This document shows positions 4,930 through 58,094 of a stretch of 64,000 bases of DNA, in pieces. The stretch's first letter is position 1; the number at the start of each line of letters is the position of its first letter. The translations under genes and the position numbers were made by a program. Under the pieces are notes generated by a model. It was not told where the DNA came from. It made no database searches and saw only the letters and a list, made by a program, of their open reading frames with translations. The stretch comes from Candidatus Nealsonbacteria bacterium DGGOD1a (GTDB taxonomy: Bacteria; Patescibacteriota; Minisyncoccia; Minisyncoccales; UBA5738): positions 6,222-70,221 of the forward strand of contig CP092821.1 in assembly GCA_022530585.1 (NCBI GenBank). Direction: 5' to 3'.

Positions 4930-5018
4930 AATCGTGCGAAAATATTAAATAGAATATGTAGAATACGGAAAGCGGATTTCTTTAAATTATCGCAGTATCA
5001 ACTAAAAGTCAATTTCAA

Positions 5019-5480
5019 ATGAAGAGTAAAAACATAAGCTGTATCACCGAATCGGTCGAGCGGACAAGAAGGCTGGGATCGTTGCTGGCAAAAGCGATAT
5101 TGGCAACCACCGCCGGCAAATCCGCGCGCGTTTTGGCGTTGAGCGGCGATTTGGGCGCGGGCAAAACGCATTTCGCGCAGGGGTTCGCCTCCGGGCTGGG
5201 AATCAAAGGAACGATCGGCAGTCCCACATTCGCGATCATGAAAAAATATCCGCTGGAAAACCAAGGCGATTTTAAAACTTTTTACCATATTGATTGTTAC
5301 CGGCTTGAATCGGGCGATGATTTGCGCCTGTTGGGGATTGAAAATATTTTGAGCGGCCCGGACAACATCGTTGCCGTTGAATGGCCCCGGATCGCGCAAG
5401 CCATTTTGCCCAAAGGCATTTTGAAAATAACTTTTGAAGTTGTTTCTGAAAATAAACGCCGGATTGAATTTGACGGCTAA
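5019..5480 (+). CDS. tsaE: tRNA t6A37 biosynthesis ATPase TsaE
   Basis: 153 aa with LSGDLGAGKTHFAQG, SPTFAIM and HIDCYRL motifs. Confidence 0.85.
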   Translation: MKSKNISCITESVERTRRLGSLLAKAILATTAGKSARVLALSGDLGAGKTHFAQGFASGLGIKGTIGSPTFAIMKKYPLENQGDFKTFYHIDCYRLESGDDLRLLGIENILSGPDNIVAVEWPRIAQAILPKGILKITFEVVSENKRRIEFDG

Positions 5481-5595
5481 CATTTTTCAGAAGGTTCCCT
5501 TGGGGGATGATATTTTCGCGGGAGGGCCGGCTGGCAAGGTTGCGGCGTCGGGGGTATAATTGAAGTGGAAAAGTTGGGGAATAATTGGGGGAAAT

Positions 5596-18600: not shown

Positions 18601-21600
18601 CGTTGAATGGAAGAGGGAGTGGCAACGTCGGGATCGGGACGACGAGTCCGGCGGAGCTGTTGGATGTGAATGGGCGGTTGCGGTTGGCGCAGACCACCGC
18701 GCCGGAGACGATTGCCGACAAGCTCTACAATGTTTCGGGCAATTTGGTTTGGAACGGCGTTAATCTCACCGCGGGCGGCGCCCTGCCTTCGGGCGCGGAA
18801 GGCCAACTGCTCTACAACAACGCCGGCGCGTGGACCGCGTTCTCCGGCTTGCATTGGGATGATACCAACTCGCGCCTGGGCATCGGCACGACCAGCCCGG
18901 ATTATTCTTTTACTGTTGAAGGTACTGGGCAGGCATTTGGAAGACATAACGATGCTATTACTGGGCCATTTATGATTTATCGCAAAGCAAGAGGCACGAC
19001 TTCGGCACCTGCCATTGTGCAAAGTGGCGATGAAATAGGAAAGATAATTTTTAGAGGCTACGATGGAATTGATTACTCTTCCACCGGAGCTACCATTATA
19101 TCCTATGTAGATGGTACCCCTGGAGGTGACGATATGCCCGGAAATCTTCAATTTATGACTACTCCCGATGGTTCAAACAGTGTTTTGTCAAGAATGACAA
19201 TTAAAAGTGACGGCAACATCGGCATCGGCACGACGAGTCCGGCGGAGTTGTTGGATGTGAACGGGCGGTTGCGCTTGGCGCAGACCACCGCGCCGGAAAC
19301 GATTGCCGACAAGCTCTACAATGTTTCGGGCAATTTGGTTTGGAACGGCGTCAATCTCACCGCGGGCGGCGCCCTGCCGTCGGGCGCGGAAGGCCAACTG
19401 CTCTACAACAACGCCGGCGCGTGGACCGCGTTTGACGGAATGTATTGGGATGACGCCAACAGCCGGCTGGGGATTGGGACGACGAGTCCAGATAGAAATT
19501 TGCAGGTTGTTGGTGGGATCAGAGCTAATTATATTTATACTGACACTGCAGCAACTGCAACAAATCCGTCAGTGAGATTGGCTAGTGGTTACGGATTTTT
19601 TTCGCCGGGGTTAAACTCTGTTGCAGTTTCTGCATCTTCCACTGAAGTGATGAGGATTGATGCTAGCGGCAATGTGGGGATTGGCACGACCAGTCCGGCG
19701 GGACGGTTAGATGTGCTTGGACTTTCTACGGCATATCCGTCTGCGACTGTTACGGCAGGGGATTTGGTTGTAGACACTACCAACAAGACTGTTTATGTTG
19801 GCAAACAAAGCAACGCGAGTGGTGATAATTCAATTTTTGCTGTCAGGGACAGAATAGGAATAAACAAGCTGTATGTTTCTTCGCAAGCGGATATTGCATC
19901 ATACTTTAGCTCGGGCAATGTGGGCATCGGGACGACGGCACCCCTATCAAAATTGAGTGTTGGTGACGCGGGGTCTGTTAATTATAATATGTCAGTGTCA
20001 TCCGGTGCCAATGGGGCAATCTATGCAAATTCTTCCAGTGGCTATGGTGTTTATGGCACAACCTTGTCCGGAGTTGGTATTTATGGGTATTCTGCTGGAA
20101 GTGGAACAGGGGGTTTATTCAGTTCAGCCAGTGGCTATGGATTGATAGTGAGTACCGGCAATGTCGGGATTGGAACAGCGACGCCGTTGTATTCATTGGA
20201 TGTCAGAACAACAAATAGTGTTACGAGTGGCCAGCATCCTATAGCTAACTTTTATAATTCTAGCGGCGGAGCGGGCGTTTTGGTTGGTTGGAACGCCGAT
20301 GGTTCAGCGGTTAACGCGGGTTTCATCCGTTCTGTTGGTAGCTTGCCTTTTTATTTAGGTACGACTAATTCTGCGCAGGCAGTAACTATTTTAGATAACG
20401 GCAATGTCGGCATCGGGACGACGAGTCCGGGGAGCAAATTGACAGTGAGAGGGGCGACTGCTTATACGAGTACCAGCGATGCGGCAACTTTATTGAAGTT
20501 GGAGTCGTCTTTGGACCAATACCCGACTTTTCCGGGAGCGACTGTTGGTTTACAGTTAAATCCAAGAGGAACCGTAGGGGAAAATATGGGCAACAGGATT
20601 GTGTCGGAATACAGTAGTGATAGTTACAGGGGGTATGATTTGCATTTCCAAGTTACGACTGCTCCAGGGGTGTGGGCAAACTTGATGAAGATTGATGGGA
20701 TAACAGGCAACGTCGGCATCGGGACGACGGCGCCAGAGACAGCTTTGGACGTTGTTGGTGCAGTGCGTTCCAACACTTATTTGCAAGGTAATGGCGCAAT
20801 TGTTTATGGGACGCTTGGGTTATATTATGGAGCAAGCGAGTTGGGCAGATATTCGTTTGGAGCTACTACGCCGTTAGGCGCAATGCCGTTATCTTTGGTT
20901 TCGGGGGATGGCGCGACTTACACTGATGGTTATATAAATTTTCAGACAGCGGGAAGTGAGCGGGTACGTATTGATAGTGCCGGCAATGTGGGCATCGGGA
21001 CGACGAGTCCGGAAGTGAAATTAGATGTTGTCGGGGTTGCAAGGGTAAGCGATTATCTTGCGGCGCCGGGAATTAGGGCATCAACGGCTGATTTTTATTT
21101 CGAGAATTACAATGGCGCTTCTTGGATCAAGAATATGTATATACAAGGAAATACGGGCAACGTCGGCATCGGCACGACGAGTCCGGCGGAGTTGCTGGAT
21201 GTGAACGGGCGGTTGCGGTTGGCGCAAACCACCGCGCCGGAAACGATTGCCGACAAGCTCTACAATGTTTCGGGCAATTTGGTTTGGAACGGCGTCAATC
21301 TCACCGCGGGCGGCGCCCTGCCTTTGGGCGCGGAAGGCCAACTGCTCTACAACAACGCCGGCGCGTGGACCGCGTTTTCCGGATTATACTGGGATGATAC
21401 CAGCAGCCGGCTAGGGATCGGCACGACGAGCCCGGGGCAGAAACTTGATGTAATTGGAAATGTCGCAGTGTCAGGGAGTGTGCTTACAACTTCTATTGGT
21501 TCGGGAAGTTCTTCTTCTTATACTTCGTTATATGGTGGCGCTACTTATACGGGGGGAGAAATTGATGTATATGGTGGAACACACGCTACGCTTCCCGGGA

Positions 21601-28241: not shown

Positions 28242-29495
28242 ATGATTCCAATAACCATTTTAGAGGAAATAACCAGAGATCAAGAGGAAAAATTCCGGCA
28301 AAGAGACAGGGGGATTACGCGGGATATTGATTTTGAAAAATATTTAAAGACGGCGCAAATAGTTGTTATTTCGGGCACGCGGCGCTGCGGAAAGTCAACG
28401 CTTTTGCGGCAATTTTATGATAATTTCGGCAGTTGCCATTATCTTAATTTTGACGATGAACGGCTTTTGGATTTTGAAGTCGGCGATTTCCAAAATTTGA
28501 TGCTGGCGTTTGGCAAAATCAACGATTCAAAAACGATTTTGCTGGACGAAATTCAAAACATCGGCAGTTGGGAGAGGTTCGCGCGCCGAATTTATGACGA
28601 GGGGTATAAGATATTCATCACCGGATCAAACGCCAAATTATTGAGTTCGGAATTGGCAACCCATTTAACCGGACGCTATTTCGGGTTGGAGCTTTTCCCG
28701 TTTTCTTTCAATGAATTTTTGAATTTTAAAAAAATTGATTGGAAAATTTTGAATTCGCGAAAAAGAATTGAGATTTTATCGGCATTCGACGCTTATTCGC
28801 AAAACGGCGGATTTCCCGAATTTTTGAAAAGCCAAGACATGGAATATCTCAAAAAAATATATGAAGATATTTTATATAAAGATATTATCGCGCGGTTTGG
28901 GATTCGCGAGGTGAAATCGTTTCGCGAGCTTGCCAATTGCGTGTTTTCAAATTTTACTCAAGAAACAAGCTATAACGGATTAAAAAATACTTTGGGGTTC
29001 AAAAGCTTGGTGACGGTAAAAAATTATGTCCATTATTTGCAGGAAAGCTATTTGGCGTTTGAGGTTTTTAAATACGATTTTTCTTTGAAAAAACAATATA
29101 TCTCCAATAAAAAAATTTTTGTCATTGACAACGGCTTGCGCAATTCCGTGGCGTTTGGATTTTCCGAAGACCGCGGCCGTTTGCTGGAGAATTTGGCATT
29201 TTTGGAATTAAAGAGGCGCGGCAAGGAAATTTATTATTTCAAAGATAAAAAAGAATGTGATTTTTTGGTCAAGAAAAAAAATAAAATTATCGGCGCCATC
29301 CAGGTTGCGTGGCGTATGGACAAGAACAATCAGGCAAGGGAATTGGAGGGGCTCTGGGGCGCGATGGAAAAATTCGGCCTCAAAGAAGGGATAATTTTGA
29401 CTAAAGATCAGGAAGATGAAAATAATGAGCGGGGCAAGGTTAAAATTATTCCGGTTTGGAAATGGCTGTTAGCCGCGGAATGGAAAAATTTTTAA
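28242..29495 (+). CDS. AAA+ ATPase, DUF4143-type (second copy)
   Basis: 417 aa with Walker A GTRRCGKST and Walker B ILLDEIQ. Same architecture as 1013-2194. Confidence 0.75.
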   Translation: MIPITILEEITRDQEEKFRQRDRGITRDIDFEKYLKTAQIVVISGTRRCGKSTLLRQFYDNFGSCHYLNFDDERLLDFEVGDFQNLMLAFGKINDSKTILLDEIQNIGSWERFARRIYDEGYKIFITGSNAKLLSSELATHLTGRYFGLELFPFSFNEFLNFKKIDWKILNSRKRIEILSAFDAYSQNGGFPEFLKSQDMEYLKKIYEDILYKDIIARFGIREVKSFRELANCVFSNFTQETSYNGLKNTLGFKSLVTVKNYVHYLQESYLAFEVFKYDFSLKKQYISNKKIFVIDNGLRNSVAFGFSEDRGRLLENLAFLELKRRGKEIYYFKDKKECDFLVKKKNKIIGAIQVAWRMDKNNQARELEGLWGAMEKFGLKEGIILTKDQEDENNERGKVKIIPVWKWLLAAEWKNF

Positions 29496-31705: not shown

Positions 31706-34700
31706 ATGTTTAATTTCGATATAAAAAATAAATTTGGATTTTGGCGCGGATTTAGGTTGCGAAGGTTAGACCTTCGGCGATTTTTTTGGCGAAGGTCTAA
31801 CCTTCGCAACCTTCGCAAAAAGGGGTGGGGGGTGGCGGTGGTGGGGGTTTTGTGTTTGGTTGGGGTGGGCGGGACGCTGGCGTTGAACGGGTTTTTCGGG
31901 GGAGGGGCCGCGATTCCCGAGGACACGATGACGCGCGGGCTGGCGGGCTATTGGAGTTTTGACGAAGGCGGCGGCACAATCGCCAACGATGCCAGCGGCA
32001 ACAACAACCACGGCACGCTCGCCAACGGCCCAAAGTGGACGCAGGGCAAAAACGGCGGCGCCCTGCAATTTGACGGCAAGGATGATTATGTGAATTGCGG
32101 GGATAGTAGCAGTTTGGATATCACGGATGAGATTACAATTGAAACATGGATTAAGCCTGAAACTGATTCGGTCTCTTATGTTGCAGCAAAAGAAATTCTC
32201 GAAGGTGAAACTTGGTACGGTTACCGGCTAGATCAGTATACGGGTAATATTGTGAGGGCGGACATATGGACGGATGGAGATCAAGGAAGGTTGAGCGGAG
32301 CGATTTCTTTAAATTCTTGGAATCATATTGTTGTTGTTTACTCCAAAAATGAAGAAATTACCAGATTATATGTTAATGGAATATTGAAAGATGATGATTA
32401 CACAACGGGCGATATAAGGACAGCATCTTCCAGAAATTTATTTGTTGGTAATTCTAACTCTCTTCAATATCAGTTTAATGGGGCGATTGACGAGGTCAAG
32501 ATCTATAATCGGGCGTTGAGCGAGGCGGAGGTGAGGTACCATTACAACCACGGGGGGCCGGTGGCGCATTGGGATATGGATGAGGGGTCGGGAGCAAAGA
32601 TCAATGACAAATCGGGCAATGGCAACGATGGCACGCTGGTCAACGGCCCCACTTGGACGCAGGGCAAATACGGCTCGGCGTTGAGTTTTGACGGCGTGAA
32701 TGATTATGTGGATGCAGGGAACCAACAAAATTTGCAAATTACAGGGCCAATTACAATAACCGCTTGGGTAAAAACCAGTAATGTGACTAGTTACAATGGG
32801 ATAGTTACAAAATATTATGCGGAAAATGGTAAAAGAGGTTTCGCGCTTGAATTTAATCCTTTTAATCCAACCGGTGGCGGTTTACGTTTTATAATAAGTA
32901 GGGATGGCACAAGTACCTCTATTGTTAGTACGAACGAAGTATCTATAAATGAATGGGAACATATTGCCGCGACTTATGATGGTTCGACGATGAAATTATA
33001 TGTTGATGGGATTTTAAAAAGCAATGCTAATTATGATGCCGGTATATATAACACCAGTGAAAAACTATTCTTAGGGCGTAATGTCGGTTATAGCTCGCTT
33101 AATGGTTTATTGGACGACATAAAAATTTATGATTACGCGAGGACGGAGGAGGAGATTCGGTTGGATTACAATGCCGGGATGGCGGCGCATTTGGGGCCGA
33201 GCGGGAAAACTTGTTCCGAAGATCCGGCAAGCTGTATGGACTATGGCTTGGTCGGCAACTGGGATATGGATGAAGGGAGCGGATCAGTGTTGAATGATAA
33301 TTCGGGGAACAGCAACCACGGCACCCTCACCAACGGCCCGAAGTGGACCCAAGGCAAGAGCGGCGGCGCCCTGCAATTCGACGGCAAGGATGATTATGTG
33401 GATGTAGAGAATAATGATATTTTAAATTTTGGGACAAATAATTTCTCTATTGAGACTTGGTTTAAATCGTCAACAGGGCATGATGGAATAAATAGATTTT
33501 TGGTTGCTAAATATTGTAATGGCTATAGTCAGAATTATCTTCTTACTCAAACGAGTGGAAATAAATTACGATTTAGTATAGCGAATGGGACTATTTCGAT
33601 AGTTGCGGAGGCAAGCGATGATTATAATGATAATAAATGGCATCATGCGCTTGCTATCAGAAATAGTGATAGTATTTACTTGTATGTCGACGGAAAGTTA
33701 GTTGGCAGTAATACTGGGGTAAGTAGTTTTAATGTTGATAATATATATAATTTTTCTATTGGAAATAGATATTGCGCGCCACGGTATCCTTTTTTTGGTC
33801 AGATTGATAATGTGAAGATTTATAATCGGGCGTTGAGCGAGGAGGAGGTGCGGTATCACTATAACCATGGGGGGCCGGTGGCGCATTGGGATATGGATGA
33901 GGGGTCGGGATCAACAATCAACGACAAATCGGGCAATGGCAACGATGGCACGCTGGTCAACGGACCGACTTGGACGCAGGGCAAATACGGTTCGGCCTTG
34001 AGCTTTGACGGAGTGGATGATTATGTTTCAATTCCGAATAACAGTGATTTGGATATTACTGCCGATGAAAATTTTTCTTACGGTTTATGGCTAAAGACTA
34101 CTTCTACCGGCTGTTCTGCCTGCCATTTTCTTATAAAATATAATCCAGATGGTTATTCGTTGCACTTTACCGGTGATTATGTAAAAGCTCTTGTTAACGA
34201 TTCCGACGAACAAATACTTTCTCCAGGTTATCGGATAAACGATGGCAATTGGCATTATGTTGAAGTTGTATTTGATAGAAGTACGGACTATATGACTCTT
34301 TATGTTGATGGCGCGGCAAGAAGCCAGACCAATGTTGAAACAATTGGCAGCTTGTCAAATTCGCAGGCGCTGTCATTGATGCGTTTTAACGCTTTTTATA
34401 TTAACGGCCAGATTGACGATCTAAAATTTTATGACTATGCAAGGACGGAGGAGGAGATACGGTTGGATTATAATGCCGGGATGGCGGCGCATTTGGGGCC
34501 GAGCGGGAAAACCTGTTCCGAAGACCCGGCAAGCTGTATGGACTATGGCTTGGTGGGCAACTGGGATATGGATGAAGGCGGCGGATCAGTGTTGAATGAT
34601 AATTCGGGGAACAACAACCACGGGACGCTCGCCAACGGCCCGAAATGGACGCAGGGGAAAAATGGCGGCGCGTTGCAATTTGATGGCAAGGATGATTATG

Positions 34701-35797
34701 TGAATTGCGGGAATGGGGCAACACTGCAACCAACCAGTATGGCAACACTTGAGTATTGGATGTATCCAAAGCAATTCTCCGATGGGATGTATGAGAGAAG
34801 CGTAGTTGGATGGTATGCCATGACTGGTAAAGGTATTTATACTAATTTTTGGAATTCAAGATTATATGCACAGTTTTGGGATGGGAGTGTTTGGCAAACT
34901 GTGAGTTTTACTGTACCTTTGCTTAATCATTGGTATCATATAGTAGTTACCTACGATGCGAATGGTGGGGCTAATAATTATAGGATTTATTCTAACGGCG
35001 TTTTAAAGAATCAATTAACAGTAACGGGTAATATCGTTTATACCGGCGGTTATTTCAATATTGGGAGAGATACACTAATGCCTTTTAATGGTTTGTTGGA
35101 TGAAATTAAATTATACAATCGGGCGTTGAGCGAGGAAGAAGTGCGGTATCATTACAATCAGGGCGGGCCGGTGGCGCATTGGGATATGGACGAGGGCGAG
35201 GGAACGCGCGCGTTTGATTCTTCGGGGAACAACAACCACGGGACGGTTTCGGGCGCGACTTGGGTGGAAGGCAAATACGGCTCGGCCTTGAGCTTTGACG
35301 GCGCGGATGATTATGTAGATGCGGGGAATGATAGCAGTTTAAATGCTACTGATGCGATTACGGTTGGAGCATGGGTAAATCCTACGGACGATACGACTCA
35401 TCGAACAATTTTAGTTAAAGAACATTATGATAATAAATTGGGGTATTTGTTACATCAAAAAACTGGAAAAAACTGGATGTTTCGTTTGTATGACGGTACA
35501 TCACAATACGAAGTAACCAAAACAAATGCAGTTGATTTAAATGAATGGCAATATATTGTCGGAACTTATGATGGAACAACGATGAAATTATATAAAAATG
35601 GCGTGGAAATAGCATCGTCAGGAGTTGGCCCGAGCTTAATTGCGACCACTGGAGAGCCATTGTGGATTGGCGGCAGACCATTGCAAGGTCAATATTTCAA
35701 TGGTCAGATTGACGATGTGCGCGTCTATAACTACGCAAGGACGGCGGAGCAAATTCAGATGGACTACCAGCAGGGAGTGGCAACGCATTTGAAGTAA
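31706..35797 (+). CDS. Secreted or membrane-anchored protein with six LamG (laminin-G_3 / concanavalin-A-like lectin) domains
   Basis: The block (W)D(M/F)DEGxG...NDxSGNxNxGTLxNGPxWTQGKxGxAL.FDGxDDYV occurs six times. The N-terminal 40 codons are REP-derived, so the true start may be GTG 31832, just before the TM segment VAVVGVLCLVGVGG. Confidence 0.8.
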   Translation: MFNFDIKNKFGFWRGFRLRRLDLRRFFWRRSNLRNLRKKGWGVAVVGVLCLVGVGGTLALNGFFGGGAAIPEDTMTRGLAGYWSFDEGGGTIANDASGNNNHGTLANGPKWTQGKNGGALQFDGKDDYVNCGDSSSLDITDEITIETWIKPETDSVSYVAAKEILEGETWYGYRLDQYTGNIVRADIWTDGDQGRLSGAISLNSWNHIVVVYSKNEEITRLYVNGILKDDDYTTGDIRTASSRNLFVGNSNSLQYQFNGAIDEVKIYNRALSEAEVRYHYNHGGPVAHWDMDEGSGAKINDKSGNGNDGTLVNGPTWTQGKYGSALSFDGVNDYVDAGNQQNLQITGPITITAWVKTSNVTSYNGIVTKYYAENGKRGFALEFNPFNPTGGGLRFIISRDGTSTSIVSTNEVSINEWEHIAATYDGSTMKLYVDGILKSNANYDAGIYNTSEKLFLGRNVGYSSLNGLLDDIKIYDYARTEEEIRLDYNAGMAAHLGPSGKTCSEDPASCMDYGLVGNWDMDEGSGSVLNDNSGNSNHGTLTNGPKWTQGKSGGALQFDGKDDYVDVENNDILNFGTNNFSIETWFKSSTGHDGINRFLVAKYCNGYSQNYLLTQTSGNKLRFSIANGTISIVAEASDDYNDNKWHHALAIRNSDSIYLYVDGKLVGSNTGVSSFNVDNIYNFSIGNRYCAPRYPFFGQIDNVKIYNRALSEEEVRYHYNHGGPVAHWDMDEGSGSTINDKSGNGNDGTLVNGPTWTQGKYGSALSFDGVDDYVSIPNNSDLDITADENFSYGLWLKTTSTGCSACHFLIKYNPDGYSLHFTGDYVKALVNDSDEQILSPGYRINDGNWHYVEVVFDRSTDYMTLYVDGAARSQTNVETIGSLSNSQALSLMRFNAFYINGQIDDLKFYDYARTEEEIRLDYNAGMAAHLGPSGKTCSEDPASCMDYGLVGNWDMDEGGGSVLNDNSGNNNHGTLANGPKWTQGKNGGALQFDGKDDYVNCGNGATLQPTSMATLEYWMYPKQFSDGMYERSVVGWYAMTGKGIYTNFWNSRLYAQFWDGSVWQTVSFTVPLLNHWYHIVVTYDANGGANNYRIYSNGVLKNQLTVTGNIVYTGGYFNIGRDTLMPFNGLLDEIKLYNRALSEEEVRYHYNQGGPVAHWDMDEGEGTRAFDSSGNNNHGTVSGATWVEGKYGSALSFDGADDYVDAGNDSSLNATDAITVGAWVNPTDDTTHRTILVKEHYDNKLGYLLHQKTGKNWMFRLYDGTSQYEVTKTNAVDLNEWQYIVGTYDGTTMKLYKNGVEIASSGVGPSLIATTGEPLWIGGRPLQGQYFNGQIDDVRVYNYARTAEQIQMDYQQGVATHLK

Positions 35798-44505: not shown

Positions 44506-44521
44506 GTATTGATTTTATCTG

Positions 44522-44595
44522 TGCGCGTGGATGGATTCGAACCATCTACCTATGACTTATAAGGTCATTGCTCTAACCGAGTGAGCTACACGCGC
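44522..44595 (-). tRNA. tRNA-Ile(UAU)
   Basis: Acceptor gcgcgtg/cacgcgc, D-arm gctc-actcggtta-gagc, anticodon arm atgac-cttataa-gtcat, T-arm gatgg-ttcgaat-ccatc. Confidence 0.8.
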
Positions 44596-47581: not shown

Positions 47582-48610
47582 ATGTTTAACCCAAAATATA
47601 ATATTTCGCCCAAGCTTTTGGAGGATATCAAGCGGATTTCCGTTCTTGTGGCGCAACTTAACGGCCGCCATTTTTCGCAAGCGGTGCGGGCAAAGTTTGA
47701 GCAAATTGCCCGGGAAGTGTCGGCGCACGCGTCAACCAGCATTGAAGGCAATCCGTTGCCGTTAACCGAAGTGAAAAGAATTTTGAAATCCCGGCCGGAG
47801 CATATCCGCGACACCGAAAAGGAAGTGCTTAATTATAATGAAGCTCTTGGCTATATCAACGGAATGTTTTTATCGGGCGGCGCGAGATTTGATTTGAATT
47901 TGATTTTAAAGATACAAAAAATCGTTACTAACGGCCTTGCGGTGGATTTTCATTCGGGAAAATTGCGGCAAGGGGCGGTTTTCGTTAATGATCCGATCGC
48001 GCGAAAGATGATATATTTGCCGCCCGACCATCAAGATGTTGCCGGTTTGATGGATGATTTGTTGGCGTTTATCAATGGCAACGCGAAAAAAATCGATCCG
48101 CTGATTTTGGCCGGCATTTTTCATAAAGCATTCGTTATTATTCATCCATTTATCGATGGCAATGGCCGCACCGCGCGGTTGGCGACAAAAATTTTGCTGG
48201 CAAATTTGGGATTGGACACTTTCAATCTTTTCAGTTTCGAAAATTATTACAACGGCAATGTTTCAAGATATTTTCAATTTGTCGGCGAAAAAGGCAATTA
48301 TTACGACATTAAAGACGCGATTGATTACACTTTGTGGCTGGAATATTTTTGCGATGGGATCATCGATGAATTGATAAGAGTGGGCGATGAATTGCAAACT
48401 TCGGCGATTACGCCCGAAAGCATATTGAAGCCGCATCATCAAATTATTTTGAATTACATCAAGCAAAACGGGCACATAACGGATGCGATTTATTCCGGTT
48501 TGACGGCCCGGTCAAAACCGTCGCGCATCAACGATTTCAACAAGCTGATCAAGCTCGGCAGGATCGAGCGCGTCGGCAAAAGCCGGTCCACTATTTACAA
48601 GTTAAATTAG
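47582..48610 (+). CDS. fic: Fic family protein (AMPylase-type) with C-terminal wHTH
   Basis: Fic motif HPFIDGNGRTARL. Confidence 0.85.
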   Translation: MFNPKYNISPKLLEDIKRISVLVAQLNGRHFSQAVRAKFEQIAREVSAHASTSIEGNPLPLTEVKRILKSRPEHIRDTEKEVLNYNEALGYINGMFLSGGARFDLNLILKIQKIVTNGLAVDFHSGKLRQGAVFVNDPIARKMIYLPPDHQDVAGLMDDLLAFINGNAKKIDPLILAGIFHKAFVIIHPFIDGNGRTARLATKILLANLGLDTFNLFSFENYYNGNVSRYFQFVGEKGNYYDIKDAIDYTLWLEYFCDGIIDELIRVGDELQTSAITPESILKPHHQIILNYIKQNGHITDAIYSGLTARSKPSRINDFNKLIKLGRIERVGKSRSTIYKLN

Positions 48611-48736: not shown

Positions 48737-51700
48737 ATGGAACAAAATTTTAATCGGCGGGAGGAAAGAATCGTTAAATTTTGGCGGGAGTTTAAAATTT
48801 TTGAAAAATCCGTGGCGCGCGCACCCAAGAAACGCCGGGATTTTGTGTTTTACGAAGGGCCGCCCACGGCCAACGCGCGGCCGGGGATACATCATTTGGA
48901 AACGCGCGTATTCAAGGATATGGTCTGCCGCTACAAGACCATGGCGGGGTTTCGGGTTGAGCGCCGCGCCGGATGGGACACGCACGGGTTGCCGGTGGAA
49001 TTGCAGATCGAGAAGAAATTAAATCTTCACAACAAAAAAGAGATTGAACAATACGGCATCAAGGAATTCAACAAACAATGCCGCGATTCGGTTTTTGAGC
49101 AGATCAAGGAATGGCGCGCGCTGACCGAGCGCGTCGGTTATTGGCTGGATATGGATAACGCCTATATCACTTACGATTCCAAATATATGGAGTCGGTGTG
49201 GTTTATTTTGAAAACCGCTTGGGAAAAGAAATTGATGTTCCAGGATTACAAAGTGGTGCCGTATTGCCCGCGTTGCGGCACGGCGCTTTCCAGCCACGAA
49301 GTGGCGCAAGGTTATAAAAAAGTCAAAGAACTTTCCATATTCGTGAAATTCCGGGTGGTCAATCCCGAAATCAAAGACACTTCGCTTTTGGTTTGGACCA
49401 CCACGCCCTGGACATTGCCGGCCAATGTGGCCGCGGCGGTCAATCCCAAAATGGATTATGTGAAAGCCAAGCCGAAGGATGCCGCCGCCGGATTTTTGAT
49501 TTTGGCGAAAAGCCGGTTTGGAGTTTTGGGCGAAAATTATGAAATCGTCGAGGAAATGAAGGGCGATAAATTGGCGGGCTTGCGCTATCAGGCGGTTTAT
49601 CCGGTGCCCGACGAATCGAAAAAAACGATTTACAAAGTGATCGCCGCGAATTTCGTTTCTTTGGAGGACGGTTCGGGAATCGTGCACATCGCGCCGGCGT
49701 TCGGCGCCGAGGATATGGAAGCGATCCGTTCGCAGAACAAAAAATTGCGCGCCGAAAATTTGCCGGAGTTTCCGGTGGTGATGAATGTGGGCGAAGACGG
49801 CGCGTTTACTTTTGACAGCGCCAAGTGGGCGGGGATGTTTGTCAAAGACGCCGATTCGCCGATCATCAAAGATTTGGAAGAACGCGGATTGCTGTTTAAA
49901 TCCGAACTTTACGAGCATGATTATCCGTTTTGCTGGCGCTGTAAAACGCCGTTGTTGTATTACGCCAAAAAGAGCTGGTTTATCGAAATGACCAGGCTGC
50001 GGGACGATTTGATCAAAAACAACCAAACGATTAACTGGGTGCCGGGCTATCTGAAGGACGGGCGTTTCGGAGAATGGCTGCGCGAAGTCAAGGATTGGGC
50101 GATTTCCCGCGACCGTTATTGGGGCACGCCTCTGCCGGCATGGAAGTGCGAATGCGGCCATACTCAAATAATGGGTTCGATTCGCGATCTGCTGGACTGC
50201 CGTTATTCAAACAATCGATATATTATTTTTCGGCACGGCCATTCGGCGCGGCAGGTAAAAAAGATTTCCAGTTCGTGGCCCGAGCCCGAACCGCTGCCGC
50301 TCACCGAACAGGGGAAAAAGAAAGTCGGCGCCAACGCCAAGAAATTGGCCAAGGGGAAAATCGATCTGATCATTTCTTCGGATTTGCTGCGGGCGAAAGA
50401 AACCGCTCAAATAATTTCCCAAGCCACGGGCGCCAAAATCGTTTATGACAAGCGGTTGCGCGAACTCAATGTGGGCGCGTTGAACGGCCAGGACCCGAAA
50501 CTGTTTTGGGATTTCATCAATGCCGAGCCCGATTGTTTGAATGCCAAACCGCGAAGAGGAGAAAGTTTGATCGCGCTGCGCCGCCGGGTTTATGAATTTA
50601 TTTCCGATATCGACAAGAAATATGAAAACAAAACCATTGTTTTCGTGTCGCACGAAATGCCCCTGACAATTTTGGAATGGACGCTGGAAGGGATGGAACT
50701 GGGAACAATTGTCAACGGCCGCCATTCCGGAAAAATTAAAAAAATCGACACCGGCGCTTTTCGGCCGATCGATTATAAAGAATTGCCCTTTAACGATCGG
50801 ATGGAACTTGATTTGCATCGGCCTTATATCGATCAAGTGACGCCGATCTGTCCGGAATGCAACGCCAAAATGCGGCGCACGCCCGAAGTGCTTGACTGCT
50901 GGCTTGATTCGGGTTCAATGCCTTTCGCGCAGATAGGCTGGCCGCGGGGCAAAAATCAATCAAAAAATAAACCGCCAAAATTATTCCCCGCGGATTTTAT
51001 TTCCGAAGCGATTGATCAGACGCGCGGCTGGTTTTACACTTTGCTCTCGGTATCCGCGGTTTTGGGATTCGGCGCGTCCTATAAAAATGTGGTTTCGCTG
51101 GGGCATGTTTTGGATGAAAAGGGCGAAAAGATGTCCAAATCCAAAGGCAATGTGATCGATCCGCGGGAAATGATCGAGAAATATTGCGCCGACGCGGTGC
51201 GCTGGTATTTCTACACGGTTAACGATCCGGGCGATCCAAAACTTTACAACGAAAAAGATTTGGATCAGGCGGTTAAAAAGTTTTTGCTGACATTCTGGAA
51301 TTGCCATATTTTCCTCCAGACTTACGCGCCCGGGATCAAAGCGCCCAAAACCGTCGCCCCGGCGCATGTGCTGGACCGGTGGATTGTTTCACGGCTGAAT
51401 GAAACAATAATGCTTGTCGGCGGCCTTCTTGAGAAATACGATATCGCTCCCGCGGCGCGGGCGCTTGAATCGTTTGCGATCAATGATCTGTCGTTGTGGT
51501 ATGTGAGGCGGTCGCGCCGGCGTTTGCAGCAGCCGGTAAATCCGGCCGAGTTGAAACAGGCGGCCAAGATATTCGCCCATGTGCTGGCGAATTTGGCCAA
51601 AATCACCGCGCCGTTTACGCCATTTTTGAGCGAGGAAATCCATCAGAAATTAAGCGGCAATGATTTTGCCAAACCCAAATCGGTGCATTTGGAAGAATGG

Positions 51701-52225
51701 CCCCAAGTTTCGGAAAAATTAATCGACAAAAACCTTGGCGTACAAATGGCGCGGGTGCGCGAGTTGGTGGCCGCGGCTTTGGCCGAGCGCGCCAAGCGGG
51801 GCGTCAAGGTGCGCCAGCCGCTGGCAAAAATGATCGTTGCCGGAAAACCGCTGGATGAAGAATTGATCGGTTTGCTGGCGGGCGAAGTGAATGTGAAAGC
51901 AATCGAATTCAATCCGGAATCAAAGACGCCGATGGAATTCGACTGGACGATCACCCCCGCGCTGGAAGAGGAGGGCAATGTGCGGGAAACAATGCGCCAG
52001 ATACAGGAATTGCGTAAAACCGCCAAGTTTACGCCCGGCGACAAGATCGTCATTTATGTCCAAGCGGAGGGAGAATTGAAGCTCGCGATCGAGAAAAATC
52101 AATCAATGATGGCCAAGGAAACCAAAGCCGTCGGGATCGAATTCGGAAAGCCGGCCAAGCCGGCCGCGCAAATCGAAGCCAAGGTCGGCGGCCGGCCGCT
52201 ATGGATCGGCATTAAAAAATGTTAA
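48737..52225 (+). CDS. ileS: Isoleucine--tRNA ligase with an inserted histidine-phosphatase domain
   Basis: PPTANARPGIHH (HIGH region), WAISRDRYWGTPLP and KMSKSKGN. A phosphoglycerate-mutase-like insert spans roughly 50195-50803. Confidence 0.9.
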   Translation: MEQNFNRREERIVKFWREFKIFEKSVARAPKKRRDFVFYEGPPTANARPGIHHLETRVFKDMVCRYKTMAGFRVERRAGWDTHGLPVELQIEKKLNLHNKKEIEQYGIKEFNKQCRDSVFEQIKEWRALTERVGYWLDMDNAYITYDSKYMESVWFILKTAWEKKLMFQDYKVVPYCPRCGTALSSHEVAQGYKKVKELSIFVKFRVVNPEIKDTSLLVWTTTPWTLPANVAAAVNPKMDYVKAKPKDAAAGFLILAKSRFGVLGENYEIVEEMKGDKLAGLRYQAVYPVPDESKKTIYKVIAANFVSLEDGSGIVHIAPAFGAEDMEAIRSQNKKLRAENLPEFPVVMNVGEDGAFTFDSAKWAGMFVKDADSPIIKDLEERGLLFKSELYEHDYPFCWRCKTPLLYYAKKSWFIEMTRLRDDLIKNNQTINWVPGYLKDGRFGEWLREVKDWAISRDRYWGTPLPAWKCECGHTQIMGSIRDLLDCRYSNNRYIIFRHGHSARQVKKISSSWPEPEPLPLTEQGKKKVGANAKKLAKGKIDLIISSDLLRAKETAQIISQATGAKIVYDKRLRELNVGALNGQDPKLFWDFINAEPDCLNAKPRRGESLIALRRRVYEFISDIDKKYENKTIVFVSHEMPLTILEWTLEGMELGTIVNGRHSGKIKKIDTGAFRPIDYKELPFNDRMELDLHRPYIDQVTPICPECNAKMRRTPEVLDCWLDSGSMPFAQIGWPRGKNQSKNKPPKLFPADFISEAIDQTRGWFYTLLSVSAVLGFGASYKNVVSLGHVLDEKGEKMSKSKGNVIDPREMIEKYCADAVRWYFYTVNDPGDPKLYNEKDLDQAVKKFLLTFWNCHIFLQTYAPGIKAPKTVAPAHVLDRWIVSRLNETIMLVGGLLEKYDIAPAARALESFAINDLSLWYVRRSRRRLQQPVNPAELKQAAKIFAHVLANLAKITAPFTPFLSEEIHQKLSGNDFAKPKSVHLEEWPQVSEKLIDKNLGVQMARVRELVAAALAERAKRGVKVRQPLAKMIVAGKPLDEELIGLLAGEVNVKAIEFNPESKTPMEFDWTITPALEEEGNVRETMRQIQELRKTAKFTPGDKIVIYVQAEGELKLAIEKNQSMMAKETKAVGIEFGKPAKPAAQIEAKVGGRPLWIGIKKC
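50195..50803 (+). other. Histidine phosphatase (PGAM-like) domain embedded in IleRS
   Basis: IIFRHGHS (RHG catalytic motif), LTEQG, IISSDLLRAKETAQII, RGESL and VFVSHEMPL (second His). Confidence 0.75.
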
Positions 52226-54139: not shown

Positions 54140-54787
54140 ATGTTCACGCATTATCGGACGCAGGGAGTGATTATTAAAAAAATCGATCGGGGTGAGGCGG
54201 ATCAGCTTCTGGTTGTTTACACCAAAGATTTTGGCCGGGTCGAGGTGACGGCGCGGGGGATTCGCAAGATCACTTCCAAATTGCGTCCGGCGGTCGAATT
54301 CGCTTCCGTTGCCGAGATTGAATTTATCCAGGGGAAAACTTGCAAAACATTGACTGATGCGTTAATTATGAATTTATTGGCGGATTCGCGGAAAGATTTG
54401 CGAAAATCAGCCGCTTTGCGCCGGATATGCGGTTTTGCGGAAGAAACAATCAAGGATCGGCAAGAAGATTCGCGGATATGGGGATTGTTGCGTTCGGCGC
54501 TGTTTTTCGTTGAATCCGCCGATGCCGGATGCGCCGCGGCGATTTGCCACTATTTCGTTTGGCATTTGTTGGATGTGGCCGGTTGGCGGCCCGATTTTGG
54601 AGGCGAAGCTCGCTTTGACGGGCGGCCGGAGCCAAACGAGCGAAGCATCGGGGTTCAAACCTTGGCGCTGGCGAAATTTTTTTGCGATGCCAATATCGAG
54701 CGCGGCAGTTTGATGCGGCTGACCGACCGGCAAAACGATTTGTTGCTGGCGGCGGCGCGCAACCATTTGGCGGCGGTTACCAAATAA
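54140..54787 (+). CDS. recO: DNA repair protein RecO
   Basis: TQGVIIKKIDRGEADQLLVVYTKDFGRVEVTARGIRKITSKLRP is the OB-fold N-terminus typical of RecO. Confidence 0.8.
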   Translation: MFTHYRTQGVIIKKIDRGEADQLLVVYTKDFGRVEVTARGIRKITSKLRPAVEFASVAEIEFIQGKTCKTLTDALIMNLLADSRKDLRKSAALRRICGFAEETIKDRQEDSRIWGLLRSALFFVESADAGCAAAICHYFVWHLLDVAGWRPDFGGEARFDGRPEPNERSIGVQTLALAKFFCDANIERGSLMRLTDRQNDLLLAAARNHLAAVTK

Positions 54788-54912
54788 AAATAATTAAAAA
54801 TTAAAAAATCAAAGATCAAAATGACAGTGCAAAATGTTAAAATGTCTGTATTTATAATTTTGTAATTTTACATTGTCATTTTTCATTTTGATATTTACAT
54901 TTTAAATTAAAT
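54788..54912. repeat. MITE-like AT-rich element (family B)
   Basis: aaaaatcaaagatcaaaatgacagtgcaaaatg ... cattgtcatttttcattttgatatttacattttaaatt. The ends match 6586-6778. Confidence 0.55.
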
Positions 54913-54915
54913 TCG

Positions 54916-56592
54916 ATGAGTAAATTTTTAAAAATATTAATCGTTTTTACTTTGGTTCTGGCGGCCGTGGGCTATGGTTTTTGGCGCAAAAACATTTACT
55001 CCAAAGAGGAGTTGAAACTGGAAATGATGGGGCCCAAAGAAGCCCAGTTGGGGCAGGAAGTCGAATATGTGGTTAAATACAAAAACAACGGCCAGTTTCG
55101 GCTGGAAAATCCCACGCTGATGTTTGTCGCGCCGGATTTTTCGATAAAAGACAACAAAATATACACCCAGGAAGTGATCGATTCGAACAAACTCGGCGGC
55201 GCGATTTATCCGGGAGAGGAAAGAAGTTTCTCTTTCAAGGTGAGGCTCGTCGGCAAAGCGGGCGATGCCAAAGTGGCCAAAGCCACGCTTTCGTACCAGC
55301 CCAAAAATTTGACCGCGCGCTACGAATCAACCACCACTTCGACCACGGTGATGCAGGAGGTGCCGTTAAATCTGGATATGGATCTTTCGTCAACGGTGGA
55401 GGCCAACAAAGATTTTCATTTCAAAATCAATTATTTTTCAAATGTTGACTGGCTGTTGACCGATTTGCGGGTCAATATCGATTATCCGTCGGGATACGCT
55501 TTCTCGCAATCGACTCCCAAGTCGCTGGACAAGAATGAATGGAGCGTGCCGGTGCTCAACAAGAACCAATCCGGAACCATTGATGTGACCGGCCAGCTTT
55601 CGGGAAATTTGGGCGAAGGCAAAGTTTTCCGGGCGCGGATCGGGATGTGGAAAGACGGCCAGTATGTGCCGTTAAAAGAAATTGAGAGAGGCGCCAAGAT
55701 CGTTAAACCCACGGTCGGTTTGAGGCAAACTATCAACGGCGAGGCCGATTACACGGCCAAGCCCGGCGAATGGCTTCATTACGAAGTTTATTACCGCAAT
55801 ATAAGCGACAGCGAACTTTACAACTTGGTGATGGTGGACAAGCTGGACGGCGATTTGTATGATTTTTCCACCATCAAATCCGATACCGGAAATTTTCAGT
55901 CGGGAGACAATTCCATCGTTTTTGATTGGAAGCAGAACAATCAACTGGCCTATTTGGCGGTTATGGACGAAGGTAAGGTCGAGTTTTGGATAAAATTGAA
56001 AGACGATTTGAGCCATTTGAGCCAGCCGGAACTGGATAACAAAGTGATGATCGGGCCGGCGCGGGAGGATTTTATCACCAAGATCAGTTCCAAATTGGAG
56101 CTGGCGCAGAGAGTTTTTTTCGGCGACGAGATATTCGGGAATTCAGGACCGTTCCCTCCGCAAGTCGGGTTGCCGACGACCTATACGGTTACTTGGCAGG
56201 CGAAAAATTATTATTCCGATGTGAGGAATGTTATTGTCAAAGCGGTTTTGCCTCCGGAAACGCAATTCAACGGCGGCAAAGTGTTCCCGGAGAACCAAGT
56301 GGGCAAGCTTGTTTATAATGAAGGCGCTCGGGAGTTGGCGTGGAATATCGGCGATATGACCGCGGGACAGGGATTGATTTCCAATCCGCTGAATATCTCA
56401 TTTCAGGTTACGGTGACACCGATGAGCTCGCAGGCTTTGGGCAAGGCGGGGATCATCGGCGAAGCGATGATCATCGGCGACGACAGCTGGACCGACACCA
56501 CATTGGAATCGAAAGTTCCGGCGGTGGATACCGCCTCGATTTCCGACCCGGGGATGTCCGAAGACAGAGGGACGGTGCAACCCAAGAACTAA
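54916..56592 (+). CDS. Hypothetical membrane-anchored extracellular protein (beta-rich, DUF11-like)
   Basis: N-terminal TM segment ILIVFTLVLAAVGYGFW and a long beta-strand-like sequence. No firm family assignment. Confidence 0.5.
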   Translation: MSKFLKILIVFTLVLAAVGYGFWRKNIYSKEELKLEMMGPKEAQLGQEVEYVVKYKNNGQFRLENPTLMFVAPDFSIKDNKIYTQEVIDSNKLGGAIYPGEERSFSFKVRLVGKAGDAKVAKATLSYQPKNLTARYESTTTSTTVMQEVPLNLDMDLSSTVEANKDFHFKINYFSNVDWLLTDLRVNIDYPSGYAFSQSTPKSLDKNEWSVPVLNKNQSGTIDVTGQLSGNLGEGKVFRARIGMWKDGQYVPLKEIERGAKIVKPTVGLRQTINGEADYTAKPGEWLHYEVYYRNISDSELYNLVMVDKLDGDLYDFSTIKSDTGNFQSGDNSIVFDWKQNNQLAYLAVMDEGKVEFWIKLKDDLSHLSQPELDNKVMIGPAREDFITKISSKLELAQRVFFGDEIFGNSGPFPPQVGLPTTYTVTWQAKNYYSDVRNVIVKAVLPPETQFNGGKVFPENQVGKLVYNEGARELAWNIGDMTAGQGLISNPLNISFQVTVTPMSSQALGKAGIIGEAMIIGDDSWTDTTLESKVPAVDTASISDPGMSEDRGTVQPKN

Positions 56593-56702
56593 TTTAAAGT
56601 TGAAAAATCAAAGATCAAAATTAAGGAATGGTATATTGTTGAATTTCAAAAAACTCAACTCCGAAATTTTTTATTTTGATATTTAAATTTTTCATTTGGA
56701 TT

Positions 56703-58094
56703 ATGGATTACTTGCAAAATATAATTTCATTGGCCAAGCGGCGCGGATTTGTGTTTCCGTCCTCGGAAATATACGGGGGTTTTGCCGCGGTTTATGACTA
56801 CGGCCATTATGGCACGCTTTTGAAAAACAACATTCGCGACGCGTGGTGGCGGCATATGGTGCAGTTGCGCGACGATGTCGTGGGTTTGGACAGCGCGATT
56901 TTTATGCATCCGACGACATGGCTCGCGTCCGGGCATGTGGACAGTTTCGACGATCCGCAAGTCGATTGCAAAAAATGCAAAGCCCGCTGGCGCGCCGATC
57001 ATATTTTAGAGCAATTCGGCGTGTCGGCCGACAAACAGCCGCTGGAATTTCTCAATGCCGAATTGGACAAACTGCGGAGCGAAAAAAAACTCAAATGCGC
57101 CAATTGCGGGTCGACGGATTTAACCGCGGCAAAAAGATTTTCATTGATGGTCAAGTCGAATCTGGGATCTCCCACCGACGCGTTGAGCGAAGAAAATGTG
57201 GTTTATTTGCGGCCGGAAACCTGCGGCGGCATTTATTTGGAATATAAAAACACTGTTGACACGGCGCGGGTGAAGCTGCCGTTTGGCATCGCGCAAATCG
57301 GCAAGGCGTTCCGCAACGAGATCGTGGCGCGGCAGTTTATTTTCCGCACGCGCGAGTTTGAACAGATGGAGATGCAGTATTTTTTGCATCCGTCGATGAT
57401 GAAAGAAAAATATGACGATTGGAAACAAACTCGTTGGAGCTGGTATTTAAATTATGGGATGGATGAAGGCGATATCCGCTGGTACAAGCACGAAAAATTG
57501 GCGCATTATGCCAGCGAGGCATACGACATTGAATATAATTTTAAAGCGCTGGGCGGATACAAGGAAGTGGAGGGTATCCACGCGCGCGGCGATTGGGATT
57601 TGAGCCAGCATTCCAAATTTTCCGGCGCTGATTTGAGTTATGCCGATCCTCAAAGCGGCGAAAAATTCATTCCCCACATTATGGAAACTTCCGTGGGTTT
57701 GAACCGGCTGTTTTTTATGTTTTTGGACAAAGCCTATACCGAAGAGGAAGTTAACGGAGAAACGCGCGTAGTTCTTAAATTCGACAAACGGCTCGCGCCG
57801 ATTAAAGTTGCCGTGTTTCCGTTGTTGAAGAACAAACCCGAGCTTGTCGCCAAAGCGCGTGAAATTTATGAAGCGTTGCGCGAGGAATTTATGTGCGAGT
57901 TTGACGACTCCGGCAATATCGGCAAACGCTATCGCCGCCAGGACGAGATTGGCACGCCCTATTGTGTAACCGTGGATTTTGATTCGCTTGCCGGCGACGA
58001 TGCCACGGTGCGCGATCGCGACACCATGGCGCAGGCGCGCGTTAAGACGAATTTGCTTGCCGATTATATCAAGCGCGGGTTATATTCGGAATAA
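56703..58094 (+). CDS. glyQS: Glycine--tRNA ligase (class II, dimeric type)
   Basis: IISLAKRRGFVFPSSEIYGG, FRNEI..R, FRTREFEQME and EPSVG-like ETSVGLNRL. Confidence 0.9.
   Translation: MDYLQNIISLAKRRGFVFPSSEIYGGFAAVYDYGHYGTLLKNNIRDAWWRHMVQLRDDVVGLDSAIFMHPTTWLASGHVDSFDDPQVDCKKCKARWRADHILEQFGVSADKQPLEFLNAELDKLRSEKKLKCANCGSTDLTAAKRFSLMVKSNLGSPTDALSEENVVYLRPETCGGIYLEYKNTVDTARVKLPFGIAQIGKAFRNEIVARQFIFRTREFEQMEMQYFLHPSMMKEKYDDWKQTRWSWYLNYGMDEGDIRWYKHEKLAHYASEAYDIEYNFKALGGYKEVEGIHARGDWDLSQHSKFSGADLSYADPQSGEKFIPHIMETSVGLNRLFFMFLDKAYTEEEVNGETRVVLKFDKRLAPIKVAVFPLLKNKPELVAKAREIYEALREEFMCEFDDSGNIGKRYRRQDEIGTPYCVTVDFDSLAGDDATVRDRDTMAQARVKTNLLADYIKRGLYSE

Follow-up and report, generated by a model that had tools for sequence, protein, structure and literature searches.

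A predicted histidine phosphatase inside the CP3 zinc knuckle of isoleucyl-tRNA synthetase in Candidatus Nealsonbacteria and related Paceibacteria

Introduction

Aminoacyl-tRNA synthetases (aaRSs) belong to the most thoroughly studied enzymes, and editing is their known built-in second activity. A 64,000-nt stretch of DNA from Candidatus Nealsonbacteria bacterium DGGOD1a, called the window here (contig CP092821.1; positions are counted from its first letter), contains an isoleucyl-tRNA synthetase (IleRS) gene, ileS, in which a histidine-phosphatase domain interrupts the catalytic body of the enzyme. A preliminary description, made from the letters, reported this insertion and left two options for it, an added hydrolytic activity or a tolerated selfish insertion. 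The question raised by this locus is why a phosphatase should be built into an enzyme that charges tRNA, whether it is a working part of that enzyme, and where it came from. The insertion is confirmed here, far beyond chance, and the comparisons given below favour a phosphatase that is coupled to the synthetase in function.

Results

Insertion of a histidine phosphatase in the CP3 loop of IleRS

The ileS gene is a single unbroken open reading frame (ORF) of 1162 amino acids (aa) (48737..52225, + strand), which matches the NCBIfam model TIGR00392 (ileS) with 857 bits against a cut-off of 621. Pfam divides the tRNA-synt_1 domain of the protein into two parts, aa 12-487 and a second starting at ~aa 700, and places His_Phos_1 (PF00300) between them at aa 496-658 (E 1.4e-30, 107-112 bits, cut-off 21.7); Anticodon_1 and DUF5915 are located C-terminal of all three. 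The closest solved structures found by phmmer are those of Thermus thermophilus IleRS (1ILE) and Priestia IleRS2 (8C8W). In the phmmer alignment aa 485 of the query is followed by aa 691, over a stretch where 1ILE moves from 476 to 488 and 8C8W from 474 to 486. Because the query makes this jump where the solved chains advance 11 residues, the alignment indicates a net gain of ~195 aa in a loop of ~11 residues. The same CP3 loop is 11-14 aa long in the aligned insert-less IleRSs of other Paceibacteria (loci L083, L085, L087, L089). The segment is thus a real insertion and not a known IleRS segment with spurious motif matches, and the coordinates first flagged for it, 50195-50803, are exactly those of aa 487-689.

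The insert lies between the two halves of the CP3 zinc knuckle, C471-x-C473 and C705-x-x-C708. The four zinc-ligand Cys residues are kept in 120/120 relatives and clamp the base of the insert. CP3 is a peripheral subdomain that has a zinc-binding motif in T. thermophilus IleRS; the Candida, Thermus and Staphylococcus enzymes differ in its topology (PMC7191050), indicating that CP3 is structurally plastic among IleRS structures.

Every phosphatase motif quoted in the preliminary description was found in the insert: FRHGHS (R499, H500, G501), LTEQG, SSDLLRAKETA (R552), RGES (E609) and VSHEMPL (H639). An alignment-based AlphaFold2 model of aa 466-724 had a pLDDT of 92.6 and a pTM of 0.89. Foldseek found 305 matches for the insert model in the PDB at E<=1e-3, the best 50 of which all belong to the histidine-phosphatase superfamily, with CobC (6E4B), PspA (4IJ5/4IJ6), GpgP (4QIH) and PhoE (1H2E) at the top. 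The insert is also the most confident region of the full-length model (pLDDT 88-96). Modelling of the whole protein had been proposed as a check on the domain, and it succeeded in part: the excised region takes a confident phosphatase fold, but its placement in the full-length enzyme is not reliable (pTM 0.62). By profile, by the residues R499/H500/G501/R552/E609/H639 and by fold the insert belongs to PF00300. The PGAM-like domain first seen in the catalytic body of IleRS therefore holds up, and from sequence and model it is predicted to be a complete branch-1 histidine phosphatase of the short PhoE/CobC/PspA-like type, forming an autonomous lobe in the CP3 knuckle loop.

The insert did not belong to any of the more specific families with which it was compared. 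It scored 84 with dPGM_arch (NF038349, cut-off 225) and 24 with pgm_1 (TIGR01258, cut-off 81.7), and was thus outside the dPGM group. Mutases have ~230-250 aa and a C-terminal tail, while the insert is a short form of ~195 aa. With CobC (TIGR03162) it reached 71-76 bits against 162.9, with SixA (TIGR00249) 24-28 bits against 74.5, and it was likewise below the cut-off of the PspA equivalog. E. coli CobC/alpha-ribazole phosphatase (6E4B), Hydrogenobacter PspA (4IJ5), M. tuberculosis GpgP Rv2419c (4QIH) and Geobacillus PhoE/YhfR (1H2E) share its fold, a length of ~200 aa and the catalytic set (Foldseek E 1e-11 to 1e-13, TM ~0.75 on the target), but only 20-27% identity. Their signature is RHGETxWN...QGxxD, with H-G at the second catalytic His, whereas the insert has RHGxSxxQ...(S/C)WPE and H-E. 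This residue, E640, is Glu in 108/121 inserts and Gly in the free-standing and valyl-tRNA synthetase (ValRS) versions described below. Unlike these four enzymes, the phosphatase of the window is embedded in an aaRS, and its relatives are coupled to an aaRS in operons.

No Hint or intein family match was found by Pfam in the 1162-aa protein. In the 120 homologues the junction residue 487 is S, K, N or G and residue 488 is Q, K or R, and the C-junction lacks a His-Asn pair. The GC content of the insert, 0.45-0.55, equals that of its flanks. With no Hint match and no junction nucleophiles, the element is a domain insertion rather than an intein, as had been proposed.

The remainder of the protein has the features of a type-2 IleRS, namely the TIGR00392 score, the GIHH and KMSKS motifs, the editing motif TTTPWTL, Anticodon_1 and DUF5915. 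The synthetic and editing motifs are all intact, and the synthetase part looks functional. In the alignment the counterpart of GIHH is GVHH in Priestia IleRS2 (8C8W) and HVGH in 1ILE. In all 120 relatives this signature reads PG[IL]HH instead of H-x-G-H; such an altered GxHH motif is tied to mupirocin hyper-resistance.

Conservation of the fusion in Paceibacteria

Homologues were searched among 5.8 billion proteins, and the best 120 matches (52-96% identity, 1145-1244 aa) were analysed; counts over 120 refer to these homologues and counts over 121 to the inserts in the alignment. Both PF00133 and PF00300 were present in 120/120, so the same fusion, when sought elsewhere, was found in every one of the best homologues. 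Their source names are Patescibacteria/Paceibacteria, including Minisyncoccales (the 96% match), Nealsonbacteria, Paceibacterota and Parcubacteria, and NCBI labels them mostly 'class I tRNA ligase family protein'. A scan of species genomes gave at least six full IleRS fusions among the matches listed, together with a ValRS fusion and free-standing genes.

Residues R499, H500, R552, R575, R617 and H639 are 100% invariant, and G501 and E609 are kept in 98%. The length of the insert is 200-216 aa across the homologues. Its mean pairwise identity is 0.545, compared with 0.52 for the C-terminal domains, 0.72 for the catalytic core and 0.63 for the editing domain. As judged from the alignment, this pattern fits a working enzyme, not a tolerated passenger. 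The inserts are strongly basic (median net charge +16, pI 9.8), against a charge of -3 in the first set of free-standing relatives. Net charge was considered as a sign of tRNA binding and rejected: other free-standing members have +27 and +13, and the charge follows that of the IleRS of the lineage.

Free-standing relatives and origin of the insert

An insert-only profile gave 226 matches at E<=1e-30 among 1.84 billion representative proteins. The best 150 of the 226 comprise 82 IleRSs, many of them contig-end fragments, and ~66 free-standing proteins of ~190-200 aa, some of which outscore the inserts themselves. The free-standing proteins match the insert over its whole length, with the same N-x-Y-F start and the same K-x-G-E-x-R strand at the terminus. 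Those of loci L083, L085, L087 and L089 have 40-54% identity to the insert, the same length, the WPE loop and the same genomic locus; unlike the insert they are separate polypeptides, and their IleRS has the short 11-14 aa CP3 loop. All four free-standing genes checked on long contigs adjoin, on the upstream side, an insert-less ileS (949-956 aa). The junction is a 4-bp overlap in 3/4 loci and a 1-bp gap in 1/4. The insert-less IleRS of L087 is the nearest to the enzyme of the window among these four (52.5% identity), and the L087 phosphatase (5001-5594) is the free-standing protein nearest to the inserts, with up to 54% identity. In a neighbour-joining tree of the phosphatases, the only tree type used and with 50 bootstraps, support was 80 for the insert clade, 100 for the free-standing clade and 98 for the two joined.

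Both kinds of locus have the same gene order. In the operon type (L083-L090) it is SmpB-argS-(x)-[phosphatase]-[ileS]-recO-DUF7619-class II aaRS. In the insert type (the window and L091-L093) it is SmpB-argS-(x)-[ileS::phosphatase]-(Na/Ca exchanger)-recO-DUF7619-class II aaRS-(M16 peptidase-AI-2E transporter-methylase). No free phosphatase was present upstream of ileS at the insert-type loci examined (the window, L091-L093). The downstream neighbourhood marks the orthologous, probably housekeeping, ileS locus, and within this one window of the genome the ileS gene occupies the locus that is common to its relatives. Because the free gene adjoins and overlaps ileS in sister Paceibacteria, the two genes are probably coupled in translation there, and phosphatase and IleRS were probably partners before the fusion; the inserted and operon-coupled forms are a Rosetta-stone pair. 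The simplest reading of the sequences, and one with good support, is that the complete phosphatase gene, coupled to ileS from its upstream side, moved in frame into the CP3 loop.

Recurrent captures in other enzymes and at other sites

A Liptonbacteria ValRS (L009, 4612-7527) carries a histidine phosphatase between both Cys pairs of the CP3 knuckle. Among the best 120 relatives of this enzyme (P0121-P0240; Liptonbacteria, Wolfebacteria, Colwellbacteria, Paceibacterota), 118 have the phosphatase domain. The ValRS inserts have the canonical RHGETxWN...QGxxD signature, and their identity to the IleRS inserts is 0.32, no closer than that of ordinary Firmicutes phosphatases. In the neighbour-joining tree they fall outside the clade of IleRS inserts and free-standing proteins. 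Judged by these sequences, the ValRS insertion is a separate capture from a different phosphatase lineage. An operon precursor like that of IleRS was not borne out for ValRS, as no phosphatase is adjacent to ValRS at the one insert-less locus examined.

Other IleRSs of 1087-1468 aa carry two phosphatase domains (P0275, P0283, P0329, P0331, P0374; L094, 8001-12260). These add three further sites in IleRS: after the second CP3 Cys pair, in the loop after DSGSMP, and in the loop before the anticodon-binding domain. One of the two-copy lineages is on a 1.06-Mb contig with genes for DAHP synthase, adenylosuccinate synthase and an SLH protein, unlike typical Paceibacteria. P0242, a contig-end fragment of 1161 aa, has the N-terminal part of a ValRS followed by at least four tandem histidine phosphatases, and the three copies of sufficient length for scoring keep the catalytic residues. 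Of the 118 ValRS inserts, 115-118 have an intact catalytic tetrad, as has each tandem copy bar one.

Fusions were also found with three other enzymes. An arginyl-tRNA synthetase (ArgRS) has the phosphatase at its C-terminus at L082 (6001-8070) and is followed by recO, and argS and the phosphatase gene are neighbours in L008. The two others are the threonylcarbamoyl-AMP synthase TsaC (147 bits with TIGR00057, cut-off 123) and a PP-loop enzyme that is QueC-like and matches QatC weakly. The phosphatases of the TsaC, QueC-like and ArgRS fusions (P0322, 387 aa; P0385, 579 aa; L082) belong to the IleRS-linked phosphatase clade or are its nearest neighbours.

Features of the window

The positions of the gene, its motifs, the insert and the conserved downstream genes are given in Table 1.

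Table 1. Location of ileS, of the inserted phosphatase and of conserved neighbouring genes in the window.
Feature	Position	Strand	Basis
ileS::hisphos gene, type-2 IleRS, 1162 aa	48737..52225	+	ORF, TIGR00392, Pfam, 1ILE/8C8W
Class I signature, non-canonical G-I-H-H, aa 50-53	48884..48895	+	Direct reading; family conservation
CP1 editing motif TTTPWTL, threonine-rich	49397..49417	+	Direct reading; invariant in alignment
CP3 zinc knuckle, half 1, C471-x-C473	50147..50155	+	Cys invariant 120/120
Inserted segment, aa 487-689	50195..50803	+	Comparison with solved and insert-less IleRS
Histidine-phosphatase domain proper, aa 490-682	50204..50782	+	PF00300, AlphaFold2/Foldseek, free-standing relatives
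R499-H500-G501, H500 the predicted phospho-accepting nucleophile	50231..50239	+	R, H 121/121; G 119/121
R552, second phosphate-binding Arg, SSDLLRA motif	50390..50392	+	121/121 invariant
E609, predicted general acid, GES motif	50561..50563	+	119/121
H639, second catalytic His	50651..50653	+	121/121 invariant
CP3 zinc knuckle, half 2, C705-P-E-C708	50849..50860	+	Cys invariant 120/120
KMSKS loop, aa 798-802	51128..51142	+	Direct reading; EKMSKSKGN in family
Conserved downstream neighbourhood	54140..58094	+	Pfam; same order in L091-L093 and L083-L090
recO	54140-54787	+	Pfam
DUF7619/DUF11 protein	54916-56592	+	Pfam
Class II aaRS	56676-58094	+	Pfam

A gene of the Fic/DOC family (PF02661, HPFIDGNGRTAR motif; 47582-48610, + strand) lies directly upstream of ileS. 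It was considered as a functional partner and rejected, since it is not upstream of ileS at three other insert-type loci; its adjacency to ileS is probably incidental. Upstream of the ileS region there is a tRNA-Ile gene with anticodon TAT (UAU) (44521-44595, - strand), clustered with genes for tRNA-Val, tRNA-Leu and tRNA-Ser. Most bacteria decode AUA by a lysidine-modified CAU tRNA and a UAU tRNA-Ile is uncommon, which implies that the IleRS of the window has a matching recognition.

Several other genes of the window were noted. A giant ORF of 4208 aa (12684-25310, + strand) has an NYN ribonuclease-like domain and a C-terminal FGE-sulfatase-like domain, with intein splicing-domain matches in two stretches around aa 1296-1545. 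A 239-aa ORF (26670-27389, + strand) matches the reverse transcriptase family RVT_1 and may be a retroelement remnant; AAA_14/DUF4143 ATPase genes are located at 1013-2194 and, near the RVT_1 ORF, at 28242-29495. A 1363-aa protein (31706-35797, + strand) is a candidate for a surface adhesin of an episymbiont: it contains six Laminin_G_3/concanavalin-like repeats and also matches the clostridial neurotoxin receptor-binding N-domain.

Discussion

The comparisons point to an active phosphatase that is functionally coupled to the synthetase, a reading to which we give a probability of about 0.6-0.65. The Rosetta-stone pair, the convergent captures by ValRS and by other IleRS loops and the ArgRS, TsaC and QueC-like fusions suggest that selection favours linking the phosphatase to adenylate-forming enzymes. 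What IleRS, ValRS, ArgRS, TsaC and QueC-type enzymes have in common is that they use ATP to make an adenylate, with release of pyrophosphate. The fusion fixes phosphatase and IleRS at a 1:1 stoichiometry and in close proximity, and the phosphatase would act in cis on a phosphate-carrying participant in adenylation. The target of H500 would be pyrophosphate or a different terminal phosphoanhydride product, E609 would donate a proton to the phosphate that leaves, and the local reversal of adenylate formation would thereby be prevented.

TsaC and QueC do not themselves bind tRNA, their substrates being small molecules, for which reason the target is more likely to be a diffusible adenylation product than tRNA. 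The domain is attached at varied points, a sign that proximity and stoichiometry count for more than exact geometry. Pyrophosphate is preferred as the substrate because every fusion partner adenylates with release of pyrophosphate, but our confidence in this specific substrate is low. Hydrolysis of pyrophosphate or phosphoanhydrides is known in the histidine-phosphatase superfamily (PMC7926622). A still bolder proposal, and a doubtful one, is that there is a family of metal-independent phosphatases dedicated to the adenylate-forming tRNA enzymes of ultra-small bacteria, which would break down pyrophosphate where it is released. The phospho-histidine might also pass its pyrophosphate-derived phosphoryl group to AMP (AMP + PPi -> ADP + Pi, where PPi is pyrophosphate and Pi phosphate), salvaging energy. 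A literature look-up on the pyrophosphatase content of these bacteria gave no result.

Several points weigh against functional coupling or against the proposed substrate. The insert is below the cut-off of every NCBIfam equivalog, so that homology gives no indication of its substrate specificity. The precedents for pyrophosphatase activity belong to branch 2, not to branch 1 (PMC7926622). In the full-length AlphaFold2 model (pTM 0.62) the flanking Rossmann segments have a pLDDT <50, and the model is no reliable guide to how the phosphatase pocket is turned towards the synthetic site. The TsaC and QueC-like fusions are one and two sequences, respectively, on short contigs. The ArgRS fusion is explicable by adjacency, as the two genes lie side by side in L008 and form a single gene in L082. 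Finally, the occurrence of the domain in four IleRS loops argues that an exact active-site geometry is unneeded, which fits a diffusible substrate but also an absence of coupling.

Such an absence would follow if an unrelated housekeeping phosphatase, for instance a phosphomonoesterase or salvage enzyme, had been copied into a permissive loop with no link to aminoacylation and had become irreplaceable, in the manner of a ratchet, once the free copy was lost. CP3 is plastic, several loops accept the domain, its N and C ends appear close together in the model, which would ease insertion, and operon adjacency offered the opportunity, as it seems to have done for ArgRS. This neutral course is nevertheless rather unlikely, as an in-frame internal insertion is not a product of read-through from a neighbouring gene. 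ValRS captured the domain independently at the homologous site, with no operon adjacency in the sole insert-less relative checked, and three more IleRS loops and tandem copies were added. The fusion partners are all of one mechanistic class, and the 4-bp overlap with ileS was kept across divergent lineages. The opposite extreme, a selfish or mobile insertion or a decayed pseudo-enzyme kept as a structural spacer, might be suspected from the multiple sites and the tandem copies in different proteins. It is extremely improbable, given the lack of a Hint domain, of junction nucleophiles and of associated repeats or an endonuclease, the native composition, the conserved synteny, and catalytic residues that are 98-100% conserved in the 121 inserts and intact in nearly all tandem copies. 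Of the two options in the preliminary description the added hydrolytic activity is thus favoured, while the tolerated selfish insertion finds no support: the insert is vertically inherited in a large clade with invariant catalytic residues, and it would have originated from a coupled upstream gene.

If the phosphatase does act for the synthetase, its target need not be a product of adenylation. It could repair tRNA ends, stripping a blocking 2'/3'-phosphate or pyrophosphate, left by nuclease damage or toxin pyrophosphorylation, from the CCA end of tRNA-Ile before charging; a mount on CP3 would be beside the path of the acceptor end. The IleRS, ValRS and ArgRS partners bind tRNA, the CP3 site is between the active-site elements WGTPLP and DxWFDSG in sequence, and the inserts are basic (median +16). 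The charge is not specific to insertion, however, since that of free-standing members ranges from -10 to +27 with the lineage, and the TsaC and QueC-type partners work on small molecules. Some IleRS copies are near the anticodon-binding domain, which is expected to be far from the CCA end. Translation would not recover if only one or two tRNA species were repaired, and we know of no histidine phosphatase acting on tRNA. We consider such repair quite unlikely. Reversal of an inhibitory phosphorylation that a kinase or a Fic/Doc-type toxin places on the synthetase itself would make the insert a self-protecting protein phosphatase of the SixA/PGAM5/Sts-1 type. Branch 1 does include protein phosphatases, there are weak SixA matches (24-28 bits), and the Fic-family gene is directly upstream in the window. 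The SixA score is far under its cut-off, the Fic neighbour is absent from three other insert-type loci, and the structural neighbours are small-molecule phosphatases, so that self-protection is very unlikely. Functional coupling through a diffusible product of adenylation is the reading we prefer.

Accretion of domains by aaRSs is a known phenomenon; the comparative evidence for selection is unusually strong in this case. The CP1 editing domain is likewise a hydrolytic insertion in the Rossmann fold of IleRS, ValRS and leucyl-tRNA synthetase that works in cis with the synthetic site (domain map in PMC7191050). CP1 is a universal and ancient aminoacyl-ester hydrolase, whereas the phosphatase module is lineage-restricted, is in CP3 and has a predicted phospho-histidine mechanism. 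A precedent for an IleRS with an extra enzyme domain is ileS_w_GNAT (NF040702), which has its own NCBI exception model; its extra domain is an N-acetyltransferase, of a different family, and the protein of the window is not a member (297 bits against a cut-off of 1999). No equivalent NCBI model was found for the phosphatase-bearing IleRS. In the RNase H/acid phosphatase of the Rv2228c type (PRK07238; second-best NCBIfam match of the insert, 79 bits, cut-off 326) a CobC-like phosphatase is fused to a nucleic-acid enzyme, but end to end and not internally. A literature search found no description of an aaRS with a histidine phosphatase built into it or coupled to it. The sequences are already public under generic names, and the annotation of essential genes named merely 'class I tRNA ligase family protein' is affected.

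The predicted phosphatase would give an essential IleRS a third, chemically unrelated catalytic centre, of the phospho-histidine type. The system is testable with one protein and one point mutation (H500A), and nature provides both split and fused versions. If pyrophosphate is in fact destroyed, this would be a new accessory activity of aaRSs and a non-orthologous solution to the removal of pyrophosphate, and it would explain the repeated independent wiring of the domain into IleRS (four loops), ValRS, ArgRS, TsaC and a QueC-like enzyme. The linkage suggests that tRNA charging in organisms of minimal metabolism has a requirement not described so far, and it may have a bearing on the energy and phosphate economy of Patescibacteria.

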